Of a DNA stretch of 27,705 bases, positions 1,461-27,215 are shown one piece after another; positions within the stretch are counted from its first letter, which is position 1; every line of letters begins with the position of its first letter. The notes beneath the pieces were generated by a model. It was not told the DNA's origin and searched no databases. It saw only the letters and a program-made list of their open reading frames with translations. A program made the translations under genes and the position numbers. Origin of the DNA: Cenarchaeum sp. (GTDB taxonomy: Archaea > Thermoproteota > Nitrososphaeria > Nitrososphaerales > Nitrosopumilaceae); assembly GCA_963693095.2 (NCBI GenBank), contig CAXVTD010000001.1, positions 1 to 27,705 on the forward strand, in the 5' to 3' direction.

Positions 1461-2036
1461 GCGGGCAGCGTGTGGGTGTGGCGGGGATTTAAAGGGTGAT
1501 CCCGCCGACACACACATGGCGGGACCTGCCTGATCATGGGCAGGCATCGATAATGACATCACACACGACGCGCCGAGGGCGTCTGCAGATCACAGGTTGC
1601 GAAATGGCAGAGTCCGGGGCGCACAGATCAGGGCGTGCCCCCTGGGGTCATGACATGGCCAATGCGCACGTGCCTTGCGCCCAGGCCAGCATAACGAGTT
1701 AAATAATCTCACAATGCCTAGCCTGCCTAGGCAGGACGTATGCAGATGCTACTGCTTAGGGTCCGGCAGCCCCGCTTAGGGGGGGCTGTCCGATCTGTTT
1801 ACCCTGACATGAGTTCTGCCACGCGGCCAATCCTAGAGTTTGGGCGCGTGTGCCATTTTTCAAATTGTGGATCATGGTCCCTTTTTTGTGGTGACGAGAT
1901 CATCCTTGTCAGGAATTATCAGGCCGACAGTTGGGCTTGCATGCGTGCTGTTCGCCCTGCCAAACAGTGGGGGCAAGTTTGGGCCAAATGGGCAGGTTCT
2001 GACACACATGGGCAGAATGCCGAGCCAGCCTGCAGC

Positions 2037-5000
2037 CTATGCCCCAATGTGCGCGTCTAGGCCAGTCTTTTTGGGCTTCCAGTCCCTTGGCTCAAACTCG
2101 TCTGGAAGCGTGGCGATTATGCGGTCAGACTCTGCGCCAACATGCACGGCGCGCTCGATGACTGCGATAATATCGTCCTCGTCCATGCCCTCTAGCGGAT
2201 TGTTGACTATGTGGCTATCCTTGTCGACTGTGCGGTTGTAGCGGTCAACGACCCACTCTAGGGGCGTGCGGCCGTTCACCGTGTACTTTGGCTGTGGAAT
2301 GTCCTCAAAGACTATGACGTTGTTTATCCTGATCTTTGTCTTGTCGGCCTTCATGCCGATGCGGCCAAATGCCACCTTTGCCGGTTTGCCAAACTTTTCA
2401 TTTGGCCTTCCAAGGTTGAACCTCTTGCACGTCTCAAAGTTTAGGTGCAGGTCTGCGAGCTTTTTGCCTGCCTGGCTGAATTTCTTGAAGTCGGGGGCCA
2501 TTGGGATGTTTGGGAGGTCTTTGGCGAGATTGTTGGCGAATTTGCCGCGATACCCAGAATGGTGCAACATTCCATATATGTAATAGAATACATCATTTTT
2601 ATTAATTCGTTCATTCTCATAATGTCCTTTATATTCTTGCACTGAATATTCTGTAATGTTGTCTATTTTTGTATTTTTATTATATGTGTATAGTGGGAAA
2701 CATTGATTGGAATTTACAATATGTAAATCCGGCATAGTGTCGGTTATAATAACAGAAAATTCGCCTATGAATTTATACGGAACGCAAATTACCAGATTTT
2801 TTGACATATCGGTTGGAAACATCCGTGGAATTTGATGAATTGCACCATTATATGTCTTGTCAAAATATATTTTTTGTTTAAAAAACGGTCGATACAGTGC
2901 TGTTCTAATGTTGTTTATGTCAAATTCTGGTTTATGTATTTTTAGATTATTTCCTAATTCTGTTGACCATTTTGCGTATCTAGAATCAATCACTGGATTA
3001 TCCAAGTTTTGCGCGTTACAATATTTGATATGTTTCCTCATGTTGTTGAATAGCTCATCTCGAGATGTATTATATGCCCATATGTCTCGTTTTGTTATTA
3101 TTCCTAACGAATATGTCTGAAATATGGCATTTGTTTTGCCTGCTTTGGCACTTTTACTTCCCATTGGCAAATATTCCAAAAACCTGTTGTCTCGTTGATC
3201 AAGCCAATCATTGTGTATATCTGGGAACACCGTCGTCCAGTCGTTGATATTTTTGATGGATCTAAAACTTTTGATCATTTCGAGCTTTTTCTCCCTAGTC
3301 AGGTAGTCTCCTATGTCTTTGTAATAGATCTTTGCTGTGCTTGACTCGCCTCCTCCACTACGCGGACTCTTGACCAGTATGGTGACTGCAACAGGGGCTC
3401 TGGAGCCTACACCGAATATGTTGCCACCCTCACGGCGACGCGTCTCGCCTTGAGTCCTCTGGTTTGCGCGCAGGTCTAAGCACCACACCTCGTCAAACTC
3501 CTTCGAAATCGAGTCGCGTATACCCGCTGCTGCGTCAGAGCGCACAAAGCTCGCGTTGGTCACGAACGCCACTATGCCCGATTCGCCTATGCGGTCACTT
3601 GCCCATCGTAATGCCCGTATGTACGAATCATAGAGTGAGTTTTTGTTATGGACGTTTGTGTTTTTGATATACATATCGTTAACCCTTTTATCTAACATTG
3701 GATATTTTGTGTTAGGATTCTCGTCATTGTAATTGCTTTGTCGTGATGAATATGGTGGATTTCCCATGATCACGTCCACGCTGGTGGCCCTCTGGCGCCT
3801 GACGCGCTCGTGCGCCACCCTGAACATCCCGCCAATAGTGGCCTGCTCGCCCCTGTGCTCCTTGCCGCTGAGGTAACGTGGGTTCTGACGGAGCGTGTCG
3901 GTGTAGCTGATCCCCTCAAACGGGACGTACCTGCCGCCGTTGCCGCTGGAGTATGTCGTTTCTATGTTCACCGTGGCAATATAGTATGCCAGAAGTATCA
4001 TCTCGTTTGCGAGCAGGTCGTTCCGATACTTTTGGTACGCGTTGTCGCCCAGCAGCCCTGAGTCAAGCAGGCGCGTGATGAACGTCCCAGTGCCGGCGAA
4101 CGGCTCGAGTACCTTCACGCGCCGGTCGTCAAACCCCATACCAAAGCGCGTCTTGAGCACGTGCTGCACGCTGTGTATCACAAAGTCGACCACCTCGATC
4201 GGGGTGAAGACAACACCGTGCTTTTCGGTCTCCTTTTTGGCAGTGCTCTTGAAAAAGTTCTCGTACAGCGTCTTGATAAAGTTCTGGCGAGCCTTAGTCG
4301 AATCTATGAGCTTGACCTCGTCCTTCACCTTGGCATAAAACTCCTCTAGATCCTCAAGCTCGGCGTCTAGGCCAAAGCTTGCGGCCATCTTGGAGAGAAC
4401 CTTTGATATTGGGTTGTGCGACGTGAACTCTCCACTGAACAGCTCGTCAAAGACGCGCGCGAGCACGACGTGCTGCGCGATCACCCTGATCGCCTCATCA
4501 CGCGTGACCGAGTCGTTGATGACTGACTTTAGACTCTCGTGAAACTCGTCTAGCTCGCGCCTCTTTGACTTTGATGCATCTAGCATGGTTTCTATGCGTT
4601 CCTCAACTATGGCCGCCGCCTTTCCTATCTTACGGCCGTACTCGTTGTAATAGTCAACGTCGCCGACCTTTCGTATCAGCGTGGACTTTATCTTGTCAAA
4701 TAGTTTCGGCATGGGGAGCTTTTCCTCACCTTCGAGACCCAGTATCGAAAAGCTGATCCTAGGAGTCACATCTCCGGAACTCTCGCCCTCTCCCCTGTCG
4801 AGTATGAGCGAGTTTATCTCACGCGCGAGTGACTCGTCGTGCGAGCGTAGCGCGTTGAGAACCTGCCAGACGGTTCGATACGACGGGTGACTGTCAAGGG
4901 CATTGTTTGTGTCGACTCCTGCGGGTATGGCCACGGGAAGCACGACATATCCGGTATCCTTGCCCGGCGCTCGCCTCATGACCCTGCCGACTGACTGGAC

Positions 5001-6707
5001 AATGTCGACTATGGACTCGCGTGGGTTCAAAAACACGACACCGTCAAGAGCTGGCACATCAACGCCCTCAGACAGGCACCTGGCATTGGAGAGTATGCGA
5101 CACGTGTTCGGATCGACGTCACTGGCACCAAGCCACCTCATCTTCTCGCGCCTCTTTAGCGCGTTCTTTTTGCCATCAATGTGACTAACCTCCACGTTGC
5201 TGGTCGTCGGCCTCTTTGTCTTTATCTCCCCAACCACGTTCTCAAAGCTGCGCTTTTTCCTGACATCGCTATCCTCCAAGTCACCGGCAAATATCTCGGA
5301 GCGGTCTATTCTGTTTGTGAACGCAATGACCTTTTGCAGGAGCTTTGGGTCTCCCTCGCCCTCTGGATACTGGATCCCGTGCCACACGGCGGCCAGGAGC
5401 GTTCTCTCATCTAGTGGCATCGCGCCATCCTTGGCCACGGCCTGCTGGAACTCCATGTCGACATATTTCGTGCTCACCATTGGCACGATCACCTTAAAGT
5501 CGGCGAGCGCCTTGTGCTTGTGCACCGCGTCAACAAACCCCAGCCTGTGGAACACCGGCCCGTACGTCCTTTCGTCGTCCATCGAATAGATCGCCGGCTC
5601 GCTACTCGCCGCCTCGATGCCCTTCTTTTCTATGGCACGGCCACGCGCCGCACCCTTTACGGTCTCGCCGTATATCTTTGGCGTGGCAGTCATGTATAGG
5701 CGCCTCTTGGCAAGAACGTTGCGGTCATTGTGGACATGCGTATAATACGAGTCGTTCTCGACGCCCGTGGTCCGGTGCGCCTCGTCGCACAGGACGAGGT
5801 CGAACTTTTTTCCGAGCGCCCTTGATGCCACCTTTATGGAGTGGTACGTGGAGAATATCACCGTCATCGCCCCCTTTGGCCGGTTCATCACGTTTCTCAT
5901 CAGATCGTCGGGATTTGTGGACACGGGGCACTCTAGCTCGAGTATAGAGCCCTCCTCGCCGACGCTCTTGTCCGAGCACACCGCCACGTAATAGTGGCCG
6001 GTTCCGGCATTGTCTGACCACTCGCGCATGCTCTGGTATATGAGCGAGATTGACGGGACTAGATAGAGGACAGTCCCGTTGCGGCCAACTAGGTTCTCGG
6101 CTACGTGGAGCGCAACGAGCGTCTTGCCTGTCCCGCACGCCATGACTAGCTTGCCCCTGTCTGAGCCCTTGAATCCGGTGATAACGTCATTGACTGCCTG
6201 TTCCTGATAGTCGCGCAGCTTTTTGGGGCTCTTGACTGCGCGTTTTGGATACTTGCTCCAGTCAAAGTTGCTCCTCTGCAGCTCTTCTGTCCCGATTACC
6301 TGGCAATGGTGGTTTTCTAGTAGCTTTCTAGCATTGGATGTTATACTTCCTCCTGTGTATATCAATATCATGCTATGGAACTTTTTTCCGGATGCGTCTG
6401 CAGGAAAGTTGGAGATTTCATTTTTCCCCAGCACGTGGTCTTCACTATAGCACTTGCACTGTATTGCACACAACTTGCCGTTCTCCTCTGCCACTAGGTC
6501 AGTCCCCATATCGGGCTCGCCCTTGTTTCCAGGCCACGATGCCCACTTGTACACCTTGCTGAATCGGTTTGAATACACACTATCCGTGCTCAAAAACTCT
6601 ACCATTAGATTTTCAAACATCTTGCCTTTCTCCGTCTCACTCTTAGACTCTCGTCGTATCTTTTCTAGAATATCATCAAATGTTTGAGGGGCAGACTTGC
6701 TGCTCAT
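2037..6707 (-). CDS. Type ISP-like single-polypeptide restriction-modification enzyme (Mrr-like nuclease, SF2 helicase, N6-adenine MTase, TRD)
   Basis: 1556 aa. N-terminal GTDLVAE...AIQCKCY nuclease motif; Walker A MACGTGKT; DEAH; LSEGVDVPALD and QSVGRVMR helicase motifs; MTase motif I EPFAGTGTF and motif IV NPPY; C-terminal LYRPF...YYIYGMLH...LHLNFE TRD typical of LlaGI/LlaBIII-like enzymes. Confidence 0.9.
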   Translation of the reverse strand: MSSKSAPQTFDDILEKIRRESKSETEKGKMFENLMVEFLSTDSVYSNRFSKVYKWASWPGNKGEPDMGTDLVAEENGKLCAIQCKCYSEDHVLGKNEISNFPADASGKKFHSMILIYTGGSITSNARKLLENHHCQVIGTEELQRSNFDWSKYPKRAVKSPKKLRDYQEQAVNDVITGFKGSDRGKLVMACGTGKTLVALHVAENLVGRNGTVLYLVPSISLIYQSMREWSDNAGTGHYYVAVCSDKSVGEEGSILELECPVSTNPDDLMRNVMNRPKGAMTVIFSTYHSIKVASRALGKKFDLVLCDEAHRTTGVENDSYYTHVHNDRNVLAKRRLYMTATPKIYGETVKGAARGRAIEKKGIEAASSEPAIYSMDDERTYGPVFHRLGFVDAVHKHKALADFKVIVPMVSTKYVDMEFQQAVAKDGAMPLDERTLLAAVWHGIQYPEGEGDPKLLQKVIAFTNRIDRSEIFAGDLEDSDVRKKRSFENVVGEIKTKRPTTSNVEVSHIDGKKNALKRREKMRWLGASDVDPNTCRILSNARCLSEGVDVPALDGVVFLNPRESIVDIVQSVGRVMRRAPGKDTGYVVLPVAIPAGVDTNNALDSHPSYRTVWQVLNALRSHDESLAREINSLILDRGEGESSGDVTPRISFSILGLEGEEKLPMPKLFDKIKSTLIRKVGDVDYYNEYGRKIGKAAAIVEERIETMLDASKSKRRELDEFHESLKSVINDSVTRDEAIRVIAQHVVLARVFDELFSGEFTSHNPISKVLSKMAASFGLDAELEDLEEFYAKVKDEVKLIDSTKARQNFIKTLYENFFKSTAKKETEKHGVVFTPIEVVDFVIHSVQHVLKTRFGMGFDDRRVKVLEPFAGTGTFITRLLDSGLLGDNAYQKYRNDLLANEMILLAYYIATVNIETTYSSGNGGRYVPFEGISYTDTLRQNPRYLSGKEHRGEQATIGGMFRVAHERVRRQRATSVDVIMGNPPYSSRQSNYNDENPNTKYPMLDKRVNDMYIKNTNVHNKNSLYDSYIRALRWASDRIGESGIVAFVTNASFVRSDAAAGIRDSISKEFDEVWCLDLRANQRTQGETRRREGGNIFGVGSRAPVAVTILVKSPRSGGGESSTAKIYYKDIGDYLTREKKLEMIKSFRSIKNINDWTTVFPDIHNDWLDQRDNRFLEYLPMGSKSAKAGKTNAIFQTYSLGIITKRDIWAYNTSRDELFNNMRKHIKYCNAQNLDNPVIDSRYAKWSTELGNNLKIHKPEFDINNIRTALYRPFFKQKIYFDKTYNGAIHQIPRMFPTDMSKNLVICVPYKFIGEFSVIITDTMPDLHIVNSNQCFPLYTYNKNTKIDNITEYSVQEYKGHYENERINKNDVFYYIYGMLHHSGYRGKFANNLAKDLPNIPMAPDFKKFSQAGKKLADLHLNFETCKRFNLGRPNEKFGKPAKVAFGRIGMKADKTKIRINNVIVFEDIPQPKYTVNGRTPLEWVVDRYNRTVDKDSHIVNNPLEGMDEDDIIAVIERAVHVGAESDRIIATLPDEFEPRDWKPKKTGLDAHIGA

Positions 6708-6893
6708 CTACGACAACTCCTCTGTGTTTACGTGTCTACTGTGGCCAACATTGGGCTGTGGTGGAAAATACTGACTTTGGAAATTTTGAAGCCGAAAACT
6801 GATGTATTTTTTACTATCGTCTATCGGAGCTCGGAGCTCGGAGCTCGGAGCTCGGAGCTCGGAGCTCGGAGCTCGGAGCTCGGAGACGGGCAC
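6708..6893 (-). CDS. Putative repeat-containing leader ORF (61 aa) abutting the R-M start codon
   Basis: GTG start about 30-35 bp downstream of a TATA-like tract; reads through the 7-bp repeat; TAG at 6710-6708 directly precedes ATG at 6707-6705. Confidence 0.35.
   Translation of the reverse strand: MPVSELRAPSSELRAPSSELRAPIDDSKKYISFRLQNFQSQYFPPQPNVGHSRHVNTEELS
6824..6885. repeat. Perfect 7-bp tandem repeat (TCGGAGC)x8 plus a 6-bp partial unit
   Basis: Units start at 6824, 6831, ... 6873, then TCGGAG at 6880-6885. Each junction forms the palindrome GAGCTC. Confidence 0.98.
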
Positions 6894-6918
6894 GGGCCGG
6901 TGTTAGCTCTATGCCATG

Positions 6919-6930
6919 TATATTATAATT
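6919..6930 (-). promoter_or_regulatory. Putative TATA box for the leader ORF/R-M transcript
   Basis: AATTATAATATA on the minus strand, upstream of GTG 6893. Confidence 0.45.
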
Positions 6931-7173
6931 GTACGTGGGAGCTATGACATTTGAGGCGCCAAAATCGACAATCTTGCATTTGCGTGTTGTTGATATGGCA
7001 AAATATGGCTTGCCGATATGCCGTGGGGCATGGCCTATGACACTGTGTGCTGTCATGTGCGTGCGGCTAGTGTGGGCCATGGGGCTCTTGATCCAGCTCC
7101 TGCCCACCATCGTCGCCTCGCGCGAACATGATCATTTTAAGCGTTTTAACCTTCTTGGGTGAGGGGGCAACTG

Positions 7174-8265
7174 TGTATTATACGGAAAGTAGGAGCGCTA
7201 CCCATCCGAGTCCACCTCCATCCACCCGGGGTTCTCCGCCCGGACCCGCCCGTCGGCCCTCCGCCTCCTGAAGGCCAGTAGGGGCGTCTCGCCGGTCTCC
7301 ATGTCGAGGGAGAAGTGGAGCCTCTCCTCGTTGTAGTGCCCGATGAACTCGGCGACCCCGCCATGGCGGCCGATCTCCGTCTCGAGCGTCCGGAAGAACC
7401 TCTCCACCTTGCCGTTGGTCTGGGGGTGGCCGACGCGCGCCATGACGTGCTTTATCCCGGCGTCGAGCAGCTCCCGCTCGAAGAGCGTCGGCGTCCAGCT
7501 GCGGCGAGGCGCGTCGCGCCTGGTCGCCGTGAACTGCGTCCCGTGGTCCGAGAGCACCTGCGCCGGCGCGCCGAACCGTCCGATCGCGTGGCGCAGCGCC
7601 ATCACCGTGTTGCCCGACGTGGCCTCGGGGAAGACGCCAAACCCCGTGACGCACCGCGACGCGTCGTCGAGGAACACTATGAGGTGCGAGCCCCTCAGGG
7701 GACCGTATTTCATTATGTGCCAGTCCACGTGCCACATCGCGTTGGAGTACTTTCTCTCGAACCGGACCCACTTGCGCCTCCTCGACCTCGCCGGCGAGCT
7801 GCTGACCAGTCCCTCCGCAGACAATATGCGGTACGCCGCGCCGTACGCTATTTTTGAGTTGTTGAGCCGCATGAGCCTGACCAGGCGCACCACGCCGACG
7901 GGGTCGCGCGAGTGCGCGGCGAGGACCTCGTCGGCCTGCGCCTGTGTGATCGGCCTGCGCGGTCTCCCCATCGGCCGCGGCTCCGGCGGCGCGCCGGTCC
8001 GCCGGCAGTGCGCGCGGAGCTTGCGGGCCCACGACGGCGAGATCCCCAGCTCGCGCGCCACTTCCCCGGTGCTCCTGGTCGCAAGCGTCCTCGCGATGTA
8101 CCGGAGCGCCCGCGCGTCCAGCCTCCTGACCGGCATGGCGCGCCGGCGCCGGAGGCCCCCAAACGTGTGTTTCGGCAGCCTGCCGGACCCGAAGGCCATC
8201 AGCGGGCTCCCGGATCCGCGCCCGGCAAGCCCTCTGGCCCCCGCTCCTACTTTTTGTACAATACA
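7174..8265 (-). mobile_element. IS481-family insertion sequence, 1092 bp, 24-bp imperfect IRs, 16-bp target-site duplication
   Basis: Left end TGTATTATACGGAAAGTAGGAGCG (7174-7197) versus reverse complement of 8242-8265 TGTATTGTACAAAAAGTAGGAGCG; TGT...ACA termini; flanking direct repeat GGTGAGGGGGCAACTG at 7158-7173 and 8266-8281. Confidence 0.93.
7198..8136 (-). CDS. IS481-family DDE (rve-type) transposase
   Basis: N-terminal HTH (STGEVARELGISPSWARK); WHVDW, FLDDASR, VLSDHGTQF, PQTNGKVERFFRTL and YNEERLHFSL motifs; stop abuts the IR. Alternative start at ATG 8199. Confidence 0.9.
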   Translation of the reverse strand: MPVRRLDARALRYIARTLATRSTGEVARELGISPSWARKLRAHCRRTGAPPEPRPMGRPRRPITQAQADEVLAAHSRDPVGVVRLVRLMRLNNSKIAYGAAYRILSAEGLVSSSPARSRRRKWVRFERKYSNAMWHVDWHIMKYGPLRGSHLIVFLDDASRCVTGFGVFPEATSGNTVMALRHAIGRFGAPAQVLSDHGTQFTATRRDAPRRSWTPTLFERELLDAGIKHVMARVGHPQTNGKVERFFRTLETEIGRHGGVAEFIGHYNEERLHFSLDMETGETPLLAFRRRRADGRVRAENPGWMEVDSDG

Positions 8266-8436
8266 GGTGAGGGGGCAACTGGCACGGCTGTGACTACCAG
8301 TCTTTGTGCTGCATGTTCTAACCGCTCTCTTGCTAGATGGGTGTTGTAGATTCTGGCAGAACGTCACTGGGATTGTCCGTTGTTGATGGGCTGGTTCCGG
8401 CCATGCAGCCACCGACGCTCGGGCATATGTGGACTA

Positions 8437-8572
8437 TGACTTTATAAAGAGACGATCATTGGGCTTGAACTGACCTTATAAAGAAGTCTTAACTGGGTTT
8501 GGACCGACTTTATAAAGAAGTCTTAACTGATATGATCTGAATTATATAAAGAACCTATAACTAGAATTGCTA
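8437..8572. repeat. Degenerate 34-bp tandem array, four units with core TATAAAGA
   Basis: TATAAAGA at 8443, 8477, 8511 and 8545 (exact 34-bp period); units 2 and 3 share TTATAAAGAAGTCTTAACTG. Confidence 0.85.
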
Positions 8573-16736: not shown

Positions 16737-17684
16737 ATGGCAATGGCAACGACAAGGAAGGCAAAGTCATCGAGAACGACCAAGAAGGACCTAGAGGAGA
16801 GGATTCACACCCTAGAGGCTCAGATCGCAAAGCTCTCGGCTCAGGCACCGCCAAAACCGGAGCCGTCATCGACGCGCGGAAGCCTGCCAAAGGGCACTGC
16901 CCAAAAGCAGCAGACAGCACCGCCGCCAAAGCCTGCACCGCAGCCGTCATCGGCTCGTGGTAGCCTGCCAAAGGGCATGTCGCCCCCATCGCAGCAGCAG
17001 CAGCAGACAGCACCGCCGCCAAAGCCTGCACCGCAGCCGTCATCGACGCGAGGGAGCCTGCCAAAAGGCATGGCACCACCACCGCAGACGGCTAGCGCCG
17101 AGACTAGCGCACCACCGGCAACGGTGGCTGCAGCACTCGAAGAGTCATACCGAAACTTTCCGATAACTGACACGTTTGGCGAGATGCGCGCCAAGATAAC
17201 GGGATACACGCCCTCGCCGAGCCGCTACTATGCGCGCAACACGGCACCGACGGGCAAGGTCGCAACGTCTGACTGGAACCTCCAAAAGAAGAATGTCACG
17301 GGATACACGCAGCCCTCAAACCAGTACTTTGCGACAAGGCAGAGACTCGCATACCATCCACCCGAAAAGCGCTTCACGGGTTATGGCATGCGCGTAGATG
17401 AGGCTGGCACACAGGATAGCGCACCGCCACCTCCACCACCGCCGTCATCGACGCACGGAAGCCTGCCAAAGGGCATGTCGCCCCCACCGCAGCAGCAGCA
17501 GCAAGCACAGCAGGGTGGCAGCTCAAAGAGCAATCTCGAGTCATACGAGGAAGACTATCTCAAGAGACTAGAAAAGGAGCAGGCTGAGCGAGCAGAGCTC
17601 GAGCGCCTTGCGCGAGAAAATGCGCAAAAGCGCACCGCACCGGCACCTAGCTCAACTCACGGAACGCTTCCAAAGGGGTTCTAG
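16737..17684 (+). CDS. Pro/Gln-rich repetitive hypothetical protein with terminal coiled coils
   Basis: 315-aa ORF after TAAATAA at about 16713; five SS(T/A)(R/H)G(S/T)LPKG repeats. Confidence 0.8.
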   Translation: MAMATTRKAKSSRTTKKDLEERIHTLEAQIAKLSAQAPPKPEPSSTRGSLPKGTAQKQQTAPPPKPAPQPSSARGSLPKGMSPPSQQQQQTAPPPKPAPQPSSTRGSLPKGMAPPPQTASAETSAPPATVAAALEESYRNFPITDTFGEMRAKITGYTPSPSRYYARNTAPTGKVATSDWNLQKKNVTGYTQPSNQYFATRQRLAYHPPEKRFTGYGMRVDEAGTQDSAPPPPPPPSSTHGSLPKGMSPPPQQQQQAQQGGSSKSNLESYEEDYLKRLEKEQAERAELERLARENAQKRTAPAPSSTHGTLPKGF

Positions 17685-26075: not shown

Positions 26076-27215
26076 TTGGCGGGCAAGCCGGACGCAAAGT
26101 ACGTTGACAGGGGCGGGATGCTCGCCCTGCGCCCCAACATGGGGCGCGCGCGGCGCGAGCTCGCCGGGGCGAACAGGAAAAAGCCCGGCAGGCCGTTCCG
26201 CTGCCCCGAGTCGATCATCTTCAGGCTCGCCATGGCGCGCTCCCTGTTCGGCGTCGGCCACAGGGAGCTGGAGGGGCTCCTCGCCGAGTCCCTGGGCGGC
26301 GAGTTCCGCATCGGGTTCGTCCAGATATGGCGCAGGGTGTCGGCGATCGACGTCGGGTTCTCGGAGCGCGACGGCGTGTTCACGTTCCGCAACTCGCTCA
26401 CCGGCGCCGTCGACGAGATAAAGGTCGCGTTTGACGGCACCGGCTCCAGGGCCGGCCGGAGCGGCGCGTGGAAGCTGGAGAAGTGGGGCGTCCGGCTCGG
26501 GTTCGTCAGGATCACGCTGGCGGTCAACGCCGAGGACAAGAAGATCATCGCCATGACGGTCACGGACGACGCGACGTCGGAGCTCTCGCAGTTCCCAAAG
26601 CTGCTGCGCGCGGTGGTGGAAGCGCGCAACCGGCATATGCGATCGCGCGCCGGCGGCAGTGCGGACGGCGGTAATGCTGACGGCGGTAATGCTGACGGCG
26701 GTAATGCTGACGGCGGTAATGCTGACGGCGGTAATGCTGACGGCGGTAATGCTGACGGCGGTAATGCTGACGGCGGTAATGCTGACGGGAGGCGCGCGCC
26801 TCGCAGGCGCGGCGGCGAGGGGATCGTCGCGCTCGGGGACGGCATATACGCCACGAGGGCCAACGTGAACCTGTGCGAGAGGCACGGCGTCAGGCCGGTC
26901 ATGAAGGTGCACATCAACTCCTCCGGCAGGTCGATCGGCTCGGGCGCGCGGCGGCAGCTCGTGATCGCGCAGCTCGGCGGCGGGTCGCCGCACATCGCGG
27001 GGATCGGGCGCGAGGAGCGCAAGCGCAACCGCAGGGAGTGGCTGCGGGACAACGGCTACGGCCGGAGGTCGTCAGTCGAGACGGCGTTCTCCACGATCAA
27101 GGTGGTGTTCCGCGACTACGTGATGGCGCGGAACTGGGACCAGGTGGTCCGCGAGCTGGCCTTCATGGCGTACGCGTACAACCTGCTGATCGACAAGGCG
27201 CTGGAGGGCGGATAG
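26076..27215 (+). CDS. IS5-family DDE transposase with in-frame DGGNA repeat insertion
   Basis: KPGRP, VAFDGTG (D1), LGDGIY (D2), YGRRSSVETAFSTIK (Y-x2-R-x3-E-x6-K). Confidence 0.9.
   Translation: MAGKPDAKYVDRGGMLALRPNMGRARRELAGANRKKPGRPFRCPESIIFRLAMARSLFGVGHRELEGLLAESLGGEFRIGFVQIWRRVSAIDVGFSERDGVFTFRNSLTGAVDEIKVAFDGTGSRAGRSGAWKLEKWGVRLGFVRITLAVNAEDKKIIAMTVTDDATSELSQFPKLLRAVVEARNRHMRSRAGGSADGGNADGGNADGGNADGGNADGGNADGGNADGGNADGGNADGRRAPRRRGGEGIVALGDGIYATRANVNLCERHGVRPVMKVHINSSGRSIGSGARRQLVIAQLGGGSPHIAGIGREERKRNRREWLRDNGYGRRSSVETAFSTIKVVFRDYVMARNWDQVVRELAFMAYAYNLLIDKALEGG
26664..26788 (+). repeat. 15-bp tandem repeat (GACGGCGGTAATGCT)x8 plus partial unit
   Basis: Units at 26664, 26679, ... 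26769; degenerate unit GCCGGCGGCAGTGCG at 26649-26663. Confidence 0.98.

Follow-up and report, generated by a model that had tools for sequence, protein, structure and literature searches.

Based on the layout of the DNA ahead of a Type ISP restriction-modification (R-M) gene in Cenarchaeum, an ammonia-oxidising archaeon and sponge symbiont, and on its recurrence at related loci, we propose that a perfect 7-nt simple sequence repeat (SSR) at this site is a slippage-prone tract in a short upstream open reading frame (ORF) that would gate translation of the R-M gene, a reading that we regard as about evenly poised between right and wrong. The locus lies on a contig of 27,705 nucleotides (CAXVTD010000001.1 of assembly GCA_963693095.2), the whole of which was analyzed and is referred to here as the window. 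A preliminary description of this DNA had interpreted the locus as a switch acting through a leader ORF; this interpretation is supported by comparative anatomy, in that the layout is shared by the orthologue in a second species, by a second Type ISP gene of the same assembly (ISP2) and by two loci of another genus (genome G078), and the number of repeat units differs between the two species. The elements of the locus, in the order in which they would be transcribed, are the following:

Positions 6930-6919, minus strand: AT-only tract AATTATAATATA, candidate TATA box of the R-M cassette's own promoter.
Positions 6893-6708, minus strand: leader ORF of 61 codons, from GTG 6893-6891 to the stop TAG 6710-6708.
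Positions 6824-6885, unit read on the minus strand: perfect SSR (CTCCGAG), 8 full units plus 6 nt.
Positions 6823-6821 and 6816-6811, minus strand: out-of-frame stops after the repeat, TAG in one frame and TAG-TAA in the other.
Positions 6823-6711, minus strand: spacer of 113 nt in which the R-M frame alone is open.
Positions 6723-6717, minus strand: Shine-Dalgarno (SD)-like AGAGGAG, with its GGAG at -13 to -10 from ATG 6707.
Positions 6710-6705, minus strand: stop/start junction TAGATG with a 0-nt gap, TAG 6710-6708 being followed directly by ATG 6707.
Positions 2037-6707, minus strand: intact Type ISP R-M gene of 1556 amino acids, recognised by its Pfam domains.

The TATA-like tract, the GTG, the perfect repeat, the run of about 38 further codons and the TAG immediately before the R-M ATG had all been listed in the preliminary description and are borne out by the sequence, as is the presence of the SD-like motif, the coordinates of which are to be corrected from 6722-6716 to 6723-6717. 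A point absent from that description is that the leader ORF and the R-M ORF share the same frame. Tandem Repeats Finder reports 8.9 copies of the 7-nt unit with 100% matches (score 124), and a 21-nt pattern of three units was matched seven times in the sequence as against zero times in all 100 shuffles. Downstream of the repeat lie 38 of the 61 leader codons, and there the two non-R-M frames meet their first stops 0 and 7 nt past the repeat, within the roughly 10 nt stated previously and 104-113 nt ahead of ATG 6707. The chance that the R-M frame of the spacer would be open is 0.086 (20000 shuffles). As the unit is 7 nt long, in silico one phase in three ties a given upstream start to the TAG/ATG junction.

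We surveyed start signals across 854 long, non-overlapping ORFs of this genome. AT-only hexamers peak sharply at -31/-30 ahead of start codons, the signature of leaderless transcripts, while SD-like 4-mers peak at -15 to -11; the 3' end of the 16S rRNA, ...GATCACCTCCT, contains the anti-SD CCUCC. The last AT-only hexamer of the AATTATAATATA tract starts at -31 from GTG 6893, so that the earlier remark that this GTG is spaced like the leaderless starts of the window now holds genome-wide, and ATG 6707 is preceded by GGAG at -13 and lacks an AT-box at -30. Since GTG 6893 fits the AT-box peak and ATG 6707 the SD peak, the leader resembles a "leading" gene, and the enzyme an SD-dependent gene inside an operon.

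We posit that transcription would start about 25 nt past the AT-box at 6930-6919, yielding a leaderless-type mRNA that begins near GTG 6893. At 8+3k units, a ribosome starting at this GTG would traverse the repeat and the 113-nt spacer to TAG 6710-6708, which touches ATG 6707 and has GGAG 10-13 nt upstream, and on terminating there would re-initiate on the R-M frame. At other unit numbers, the ribosome would end at TAG 6823 or at TAG-TAA 6816-6811, more than 100 nt upstream and too far for reinitiation, and the enzyme would be made at a low level only, from a partly paired SD. Gain or loss of units at replication would consequently switch restriction and modification together, heritably and reversibly, with the protein unchanged. 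The portions drawn on here of work on Haloferax volcanii and Escherichia coli report that the downstream member of gene pairs whose stop and start codons overlap depends on ribosomes from upstream, and that in H. volcanii translation of the downstream gene is lost when the upstream one carries premature stops, and coupling almost disappears with gaps of about 20 nt (Huber et al. 2019, PMC6728339; 2023, PMC10666635); likewise, SD motifs are described to help reinitiation even in archaea whose 5' untranslated regions seldom rely on them (PMC6728339). The locus resembles these coupled pairs in its stop/start contact, in the SD inside the upstream ORF and in the predicted dependence on upstream translation. 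However, the H. volcanii and E. coli pairs, as described in those portions, are fixed, mostly have 4-nt or 1-nt overlaps and encode subunits of complexes, whereas here stop and start are separated by 0 nt (TAGATG), the upstream peptide lacks conservation and a hypermutable repeat would decide whether ribosomes arrive.

A bacterial system with a comparable logic is pil1 of Streptococcus gallolyticus (Danne et al. 2014, PMC3894217), in which, according to the part of that study used here, the number of repeats in a leader peptide sets where leader translation ends and controls the downstream pilus operon. In both cases a repeat in an upstream leader decides downstream expression with the products unchanged, although for the present locus this is a prediction. 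This precedent bears on an alternative in which the frame matters as well, but the output is transcriptional: an early leader stop would leave the spacer untranslated and lead to termination, by polarity or by pil1-like attenuation, instead of a failure to reinitiate. T-runs in the spacer (TTTT at 6798-6795 and TATTTTCC further downstream) and its conservation as nucleotides and not as peptide would suit such a mechanism. Yet a scan of both strands of 6600-7200 with a bacterial model, from which archaeal termination differs, gave no stem-loop plus T-run terminator, and attenuation would have no need of the exact junction and SD, which are kept in six of the seven repeat-bearing loci of the census given below. 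As pil1 is a bacterial pilus operon attenuated at a stem-loop terminator, while here no such terminator was found by that model and the leader stop abuts a start with an SD, this arrangement points to reinitiation over pil1-type attenuation, and we consider transcriptional output improbable.

The downstream gene had been assigned to the Type ISP R-M class, and the complete Pfam domain order of its product confirms this: Mrr_cat_2 (9e-28), ResIII (4.3e-25), Helicase_C, ISP_coupler (3.5e-25), N6_Mtase (7.7e-07) and Type_ISP_C (3.2e-80). The characterised Type ISP enzymes LlaGI and LlaBIII of Lactococcus similarly combine, in a single polypeptide, an Mrr-type nuclease and an SF2 ATPase with a coupler, an N6-adenine methyltransferase and a specificity domain at the C-terminus, and to our knowledge no upstream repeat or leader ORF accompanies these lactococcal genes. 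The nearest bacterial relatives of the archaeal enzyme that we found are 33-38% identical to it. Within the specificity domain (enzyme residues ~1140-1380), the G+C content falls to 32% at window positions 2501-3000; the same residues differ between the orthologues much more than the remainder of the protein does and show no DNA-level alignment with ISP2, which looks like the exchange of a target-recognition module.

The complete genome of a second species of Cenarchaeum (G004) codes for an intact orthologue with 88% identity to the window enzyme over 1500 amino acids. At the corresponding site and between matching flanks it carries the identical 7-nt unit in 17.9 perfect copies, as against 8.9 in the window; repeat length, the invariance of which in the population the preliminary description had counted as evidence against a switch, thus varies between the two genomes. 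The difference amounts to nine units (63 nt), so that the GTG frame is kept and runs to TAG/ATG in both species, with a leader ORF of 82 open codons in G004. Of the 38 leader residues downstream of the repeat, 8 differ between the two species, and the 11 nucleotide changes split 5/3/3 over codon positions, an even spread which indicates that the leader frame is conserved and the peptide sequence is not. The spacer (6711-6823) is correspondingly 90.3% identical with no third-position bias. In contrast, the first 200 codons of the R-M gene show 8/13/38 differences by codon position, indicating purifying selection. Overall divergence from G004 is about 9-10% across ~6940-6708, as against 26% upstream of this stretch and 19% at the third codon positions of the R-M gene; the drop at ~6940 indicates that the conserved unit starts at the inner AT-box (6930-6919). 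Two further readings of the leader were tried and rejected. That the leader, or a longer ORF upstream of it (considered below), encodes a real small protein is contradicted by the lack of a Pfam match and by substitutions spread evenly across codon positions (5/3/3 and 18/19/22, respectively). Decoding of the TAG as pyrrolysine, by which leader and enzyme would be fused, finds no support either, as in a profile search of the assembly McrA was absent and the best PylS match scored 21.9 bits, below the cut-off of 178.

The second full-length Type ISP gene, ISP2, lies on the main contig of the assembly (C1) and codes for 1560 amino acids with 59% identity to the window enzyme. Its upstream region is recognisably homologous, comprising an AT-box, (CTCTGGCG)x7 with an 8-nt unit, a 109-nt spacer, GGAG and a TGA/TTG junction, and its in-frame leader is open for 90 codons. 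The same layout as in the window is found at both homologues of G078 (57% and 51% identity), with repeats of 10-nt units, (GCTCTGCACG)x5 and (AGCTCTGTAC)x3, followed in each by a spacer of 52-58 nt, GGAGGGGG and a TGA/ATG junction. In both G078 loci an ATG 21-22 nt past the AT-box enters the repeat in a frame that closes 0-19 nt past its end, and this frame is one unit off the one that reaches the junction. Further afield, locus L043 combines an 11-nt x3 repeat with a TGA/GTG junction, and locus L147 (G019:C50) has (ACAG)x13 at oriented positions 691-742, about 110 nt upstream of a more distant Type ISP-like gene (34% identical); there, the frame opened by an ATG immediately ahead of the repeat closes about 25 nt short of the conserved N-terminus, with no junction. 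Hence the absence of a comparable repeat or leader from homologous loci, which the preliminary description had named as telling against a switch, did not occur: the orthologue, ISP2 and the two G078 genes all have them.

Across the five clear repeat-leader loci, GGAG is conserved in five of five, and in all five the spacer is open in the R-M frame alone, the other frames closing 0-20 nt past the repeat. The shuffle probabilities of the open frame at the five loci are 0.086, 0.080, 0.067, 0.52 and 0.62, with a product of 0.0019 for the four that are non-orthologous (0.086, 0.067, 0.52 and 0.62). The repeat units at Type ISP loci are all non-triplet (7, 8, 10, 10, 11 and 4 nt). These regularities are left unexplained by the alternative of a frame-independent role, in which expression would be adjusted by the length of the repeat as a DNA or RNA element, be it through a 5' hairpin that alters the stability of the mRNA or the access of ribosomes, or through its spacing of promoter elements: it accounts neither for the spacer being open in the R-M frame alone and the other frames closing at once, nor for the leader ending exactly at the start codon, nor for the non-triplet units. 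In its favour, the whole leader RNA folds with -68.9 kcal/mol (z = -5.0), the repeat tract pairing with itself and being predicted to form a long hairpin built of 6-bp GAGCUC helices; an Rfam scan of the repeat RNA returned matches of the microRNA-hairpin type only, all sub-threshold (17-26 bits as against gathering scores of 57-102). Moreover, ISP2 has no canonical start ahead of its repeat, and in tlpB of Helicobacter pylori the mRNA leader is known to carry a repeat whose effect depends on its length, going by the part of PMC8295292 used here. On balance, we judge frame-independent length tuning to be unlikely.

A different alternative retains the logic of the switch and changes the leader that is translated. 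It involves an ORF which, like the promoter-type element ahead of it, is absent from the preliminary description:

Positions 7110-6814, minus strand: alternative long upstream ORF of 98 amino acids, from ATG 7110 to TAG-TAA, crossing the inner AT-box and the repeat in the second frame.

By this account, the ORF would be expressed from a native chromosomal leaderless promoter, TTAAAAT at 7140-7134, and by phase arithmetic unit numbers of 2 mod 3 couple the GTG leader, those of 1 mod 3 the ATG 7110 leader and those of 0 mod 3 neither, so that 8 or 17 units would be OFF and 7+3k units ON. The TTAAAAT box, at -30 to -24 from ATG 7110, sits exactly on the genome-wide peak and is paired with an ATG. 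No difference separates the window and G004 in the promoter block, which over 50 nt is 92% identical at the cassette-free site of C1, where it stands ahead of a small ORF. The ATG 7110 frame is open for 98 codons in the window and 121 in G004 despite 26% divergence, with a sole indel of 3 nt; its differences by codon position (18/19/22) show no coding-type pattern. In ISP2, furthermore, the homologous upstream frame (SYTYIAHRPALTP vs PTYNYNIHGIELTP) is the one that reaches the junction. Against this, conservation with the orthologue starts only at ~6940, at the inner AT-box, both G078 loci lack a long upstream ORF and have only AT-box, ATG and repeat, and it would be odd for two intact orthologues under purifying selection both to be fixed OFF. 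We favour GTG 6893 as the inner start because conservation begins at ~6940 and the G078 loci have the short arrangement only, and translation from ATG 7110 accordingly appears to us a minor possibility. ISP2 is awkward for both versions, fitting neither the GTG start nor the ATG 7110 start well. At three sites, 34-nt tandem repeats with TTTATAAAG stand upstream of the conserved TTAAAAT promoter block, namely window 8437-8570, C1:1106269-1106491 (the cassette-free site, ~7 copies) and L004 1231-1318 of the second species.

To place these loci in the wider family, a 300-residue N-terminal query of the enzyme was used, which matched in 24 of 301 family genomes (44 match rows). Forty-one of these rows were examined (30, and 11 fetched later), three fragmentary ones remaining outside separate examination; five were set aside, their match beginning after residue 30, which left 36 scorable loci. 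As a control we used the best 80 of 582 metagenome relatives. A repeat with a unit of at least 4 nt in at least three copies within 300 nt upstream occurs in 7 of the 36 family loci and, unlike at the window locus, in none of the best 80 metagenome homologues (Fisher p = 1.8e-4), which have only a T9 run and a (CG)7 upstream. Stop/start junctions were scored in nine family loci and six control loci, and the two features together in six and zero, respectively. Within the family, the junction accompanies the repeat in 6 of 7 repeat loci as against 3 of 29 repeat-less ones (Fisher p = 2.8e-4). Both Fisher figures overstate independence, because the scored loci are related.

We then considered where long repeats lie in the assembly as a whole. 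There are 20 of them, comprising 14 homopolymers (11-21 nt) and six repeats with units of 4-9 nt, and 18 DNA-methyltransferase genes (eight C5, five N6_Mtase-type and five N4/N6-type). Counting a repeat as 5'-terminal if it lies at most 300 nt upstream of a methyltransferase gene or in its first 150 nt, 7 of the 20 fall at the 5' ends of these 18 genes, as against 0.08 expected (Poisson p = 4e-12). The repeat-linked genes are:

Two Type ISP genes, the window gene and ISP2: repeats in their leaders.
C5 enzyme: (GGCGTCTC)x12 between ATG and motif I, one unit out of frame.
C5 enzyme: (GGCA)x34 immediately ahead of motif I.
C5 enzyme: G12, 220 nt upstream.
N4/N6 enzyme: C11 right after ATG, out of frame.
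N4/N6 enzyme: G11 after the DPPY motif, with frames that differ on its two sides.

The five non-ISP sites (three C5, two N4/N6) are C1:33829-33924, 1747265-1747400, 813399-813410, 148289-148299 and 285034-285044; as homopolymer lengths in the assembly may be wrong, the frame states of the homopolymer-bearing genes are uncertain. With DNA queries, no orthologues of two repeat-bearing C5-methyltransferases were found in four other Cenarchaeum genomes. We tentatively propose, with confidence a little short of even, that Cenarchaeum runs a set of repeat-driven contingency loci on DNA-modification genes, with two Type ISP genes controlled via leader ORFs, and two or three C5 and two N4/N6 genes having repeats within their 5' coding ends or immediately upstream of these. 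Across the family, runs of at least 12 G are present in 58 of the 301 genomes (a tally that includes the unpublished G221 and G243, on which no other result relies), concentrated in genera that have Type ISP homologues (g1 4/4, g2 5/5, g14 5/5, g18 9/10) and absent from several well-sampled ones (e.g. g17 0/31, g40 0/37).

The same distribution bears on the possibility that the repeat has no regulatory role, being a neutral or selfish microsatellite carried along with the cassette while the enzyme is made constitutively from its own SD. The SD does stand at a typical distance ahead of ATG 6707, and the genus is generally repeat-rich; nevertheless, the tract is perfect in both species while its flanks differ by 10-26%, long repeats are strongly concentrated at methyltransferase 5' ends and the frame architecture recurs across loci. 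We regard a purely neutral repeat as very improbable.

Elsewhere on C1, (CGCCGCAA)x17 at 1790912-1791047 lies upstream of an IS630-like DDE_3 transposase, with a 1084-residue ORF with an N6_Mtase match ~1.3-2 kb beyond, and this repeat may once have been part of that gene. Paired poly-C tracts of 13-18 nt with near-identical flanks occur at C1:766200/776010 and 1324331/1328123, the adjoining ORFs having no Pfam match.

Several observations weigh against a leader-ORF switch starting at GTG 6893. At the start codon itself, well-placed AT-boxes precede 13.7% of candidate ATGs and 12.7% of TTGs, as against 4.9% of GTGs with a background of 2.2%, so that a GTG start after an AT-box would be possible but of a rarer kind; in G004 the AT-only run is not continuous, and the last AT-only hexamer begins at -35; and ISP2 has ATC, not a canonical start, where the window has GTG, its sole in-frame ATG lying upstream of the AT-box and having no AT-box of its own. 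As ATG 7110 crosses the repeat in another frame, the present ON/OFF state of the 8-unit allele is uncertain. The conserved SD at ATG 6707 could also permit independent initiation, which may make the switch leaky: at the five loci the predicted probability of the SD being unpaired is 0.11-0.39, compared to 0.44-0.58 overall, a masking that is only moderate, and the lower accessibility offers a weak argument that independent initiation would be cut. Both orthologues are in the same phase, with no alternative state of the locus observed, and an in-phase difference alone has a 1 in 3 chance. Variation in unit number within a population was likewise not observed, the k-mer contigs of four public runs (X1, X2, X4 and X5, of seven listed) breaking inside the repeat at 6850 and 6876. 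Finally, loci L036, L038 and L058 have the junction and an open leader but no repeat, so that a junction alone implies no switch; these three loci suggest that the coupled leader came first and that repeats were added later.

The assembly that contains the locus measures 2.0 Mb in two contigs with 60% G+C, and an archaeal small-subunit rRNA (1457.6 bits) and an archaeal Dph6 identify the host as archaeal. The window is the whole of the smaller contig and, apart from the cassette segment, is 95-97% identical to C1:1076604-1108349, which makes it look like a second strain type within the assembly. The R-M gene belongs to the following segment:

Positions ~1498-7107, minus strand: R-M cassette of 5.6 kb, missing at the corresponding site of C1, the main chromosome contig.

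The cassette is accordingly present in one strain type and in G004, with the main chromosome lacking it at that site. Contigs from the same samples of the public runs also contain a second, orthologue-like sequence type, and an exact 29-nt repeat-flank pattern had no match in metagenome contigs. The window in turn lacks about 10.8 kb that C1 has (1089898-1100742), including a gene for a 1003-residue HYR-domain protein with an in-frame 9-nt x11 repeat. Next to the cassette, at window 7174-8265, and likewise an addition relative to C1, is an insertion sequence (1092 bp), flanked by direct repeats of 16 nt (7158-7173 and 8266-8281), with inverted ends of 24 nt and an rve-type transposase. It has four near-full-length copies in the assembly; its empty site is present in contigs of runs X2 and X4, where sequence resembling this element is very deep. 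Other tandem repeats of the window are a 93-nt unit (2-2.5 copies) at 16856-17087 and a 15-nt x9.2 repeat at 26651-26788.

Phasevarions are known from phase-variable Type III mod, Type I hsd and Type IIG genes of Haemophilus, Neisseria, Helicobacter and Campylobacter. The locus described here shares with such bacterial R-M genes a perfect non-triplet repeat at the 5' end, at which slippage would shift the frame, and the presence of several loci per genome. However, whereas the bacterial repeats lie inside the enzyme's own ORF, here the repeat lies in a separate leader ORF that touches the start of the enzyme; the host is an archaeon, the enzyme a single-chain Type ISP protein and any methylation-dependent regulon putative. 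The comparisons above support the view that the locus would combine repeat-driven R-M phase variation, a leader-peptide repeat switch and termination-reinitiation coupling, in an archaeon and on a Type ISP enzyme. We found no paper on repeat-driven phase variation of an archaeal R-M gene or on a phase-variable Type ISP enzyme, in a search that stopped short of subscription journals, supplementary tables and REBASE surveys, the last of which may list archaeal entries. In the portions considered, a survey of archaeal R-M systems mentions phase-variable ones only via cited bacterial surveys (PMC10609329), a 2026 review of prokaryotic methyltransferases presents no archaeal case (PMC13076061) and a 2025 review of phase variation names archaeal distribution only as a future direction (PMC11868660), while a 2026 perspective leaves archaea unmentioned (PMC13742949). 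A preprint (10.1101/2025.10.21.683753) states that contingency loci have been described in archaea, its sole archaeal reference being a 1987 paper on simple repeats in archaebacterial genomes.

The idea is directly testable, as a long read with methylation kinetics reports, for one and the same molecule, both the number of units and the activity of the enzyme. If the reading across multiple loci is true, this would be the first repeat-based R-M phase variation described in Archaea, and the leader-ORF reinitiation gate would be a type of switch undescribed for any R-M system. Repeat-driven phase variation has been treated as a bacterial and mostly pathogen-associated form of bet-hedging; if the locus switches, the strategy would reach Archaea and a host-associated nitrifier. 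It would also provide a natural case in which termination-reinitiation coupling serves as a regulatory gate instead of setting subunit stoichiometry, and would show that a single-chain enzyme can be switched with its own sequence untouched.

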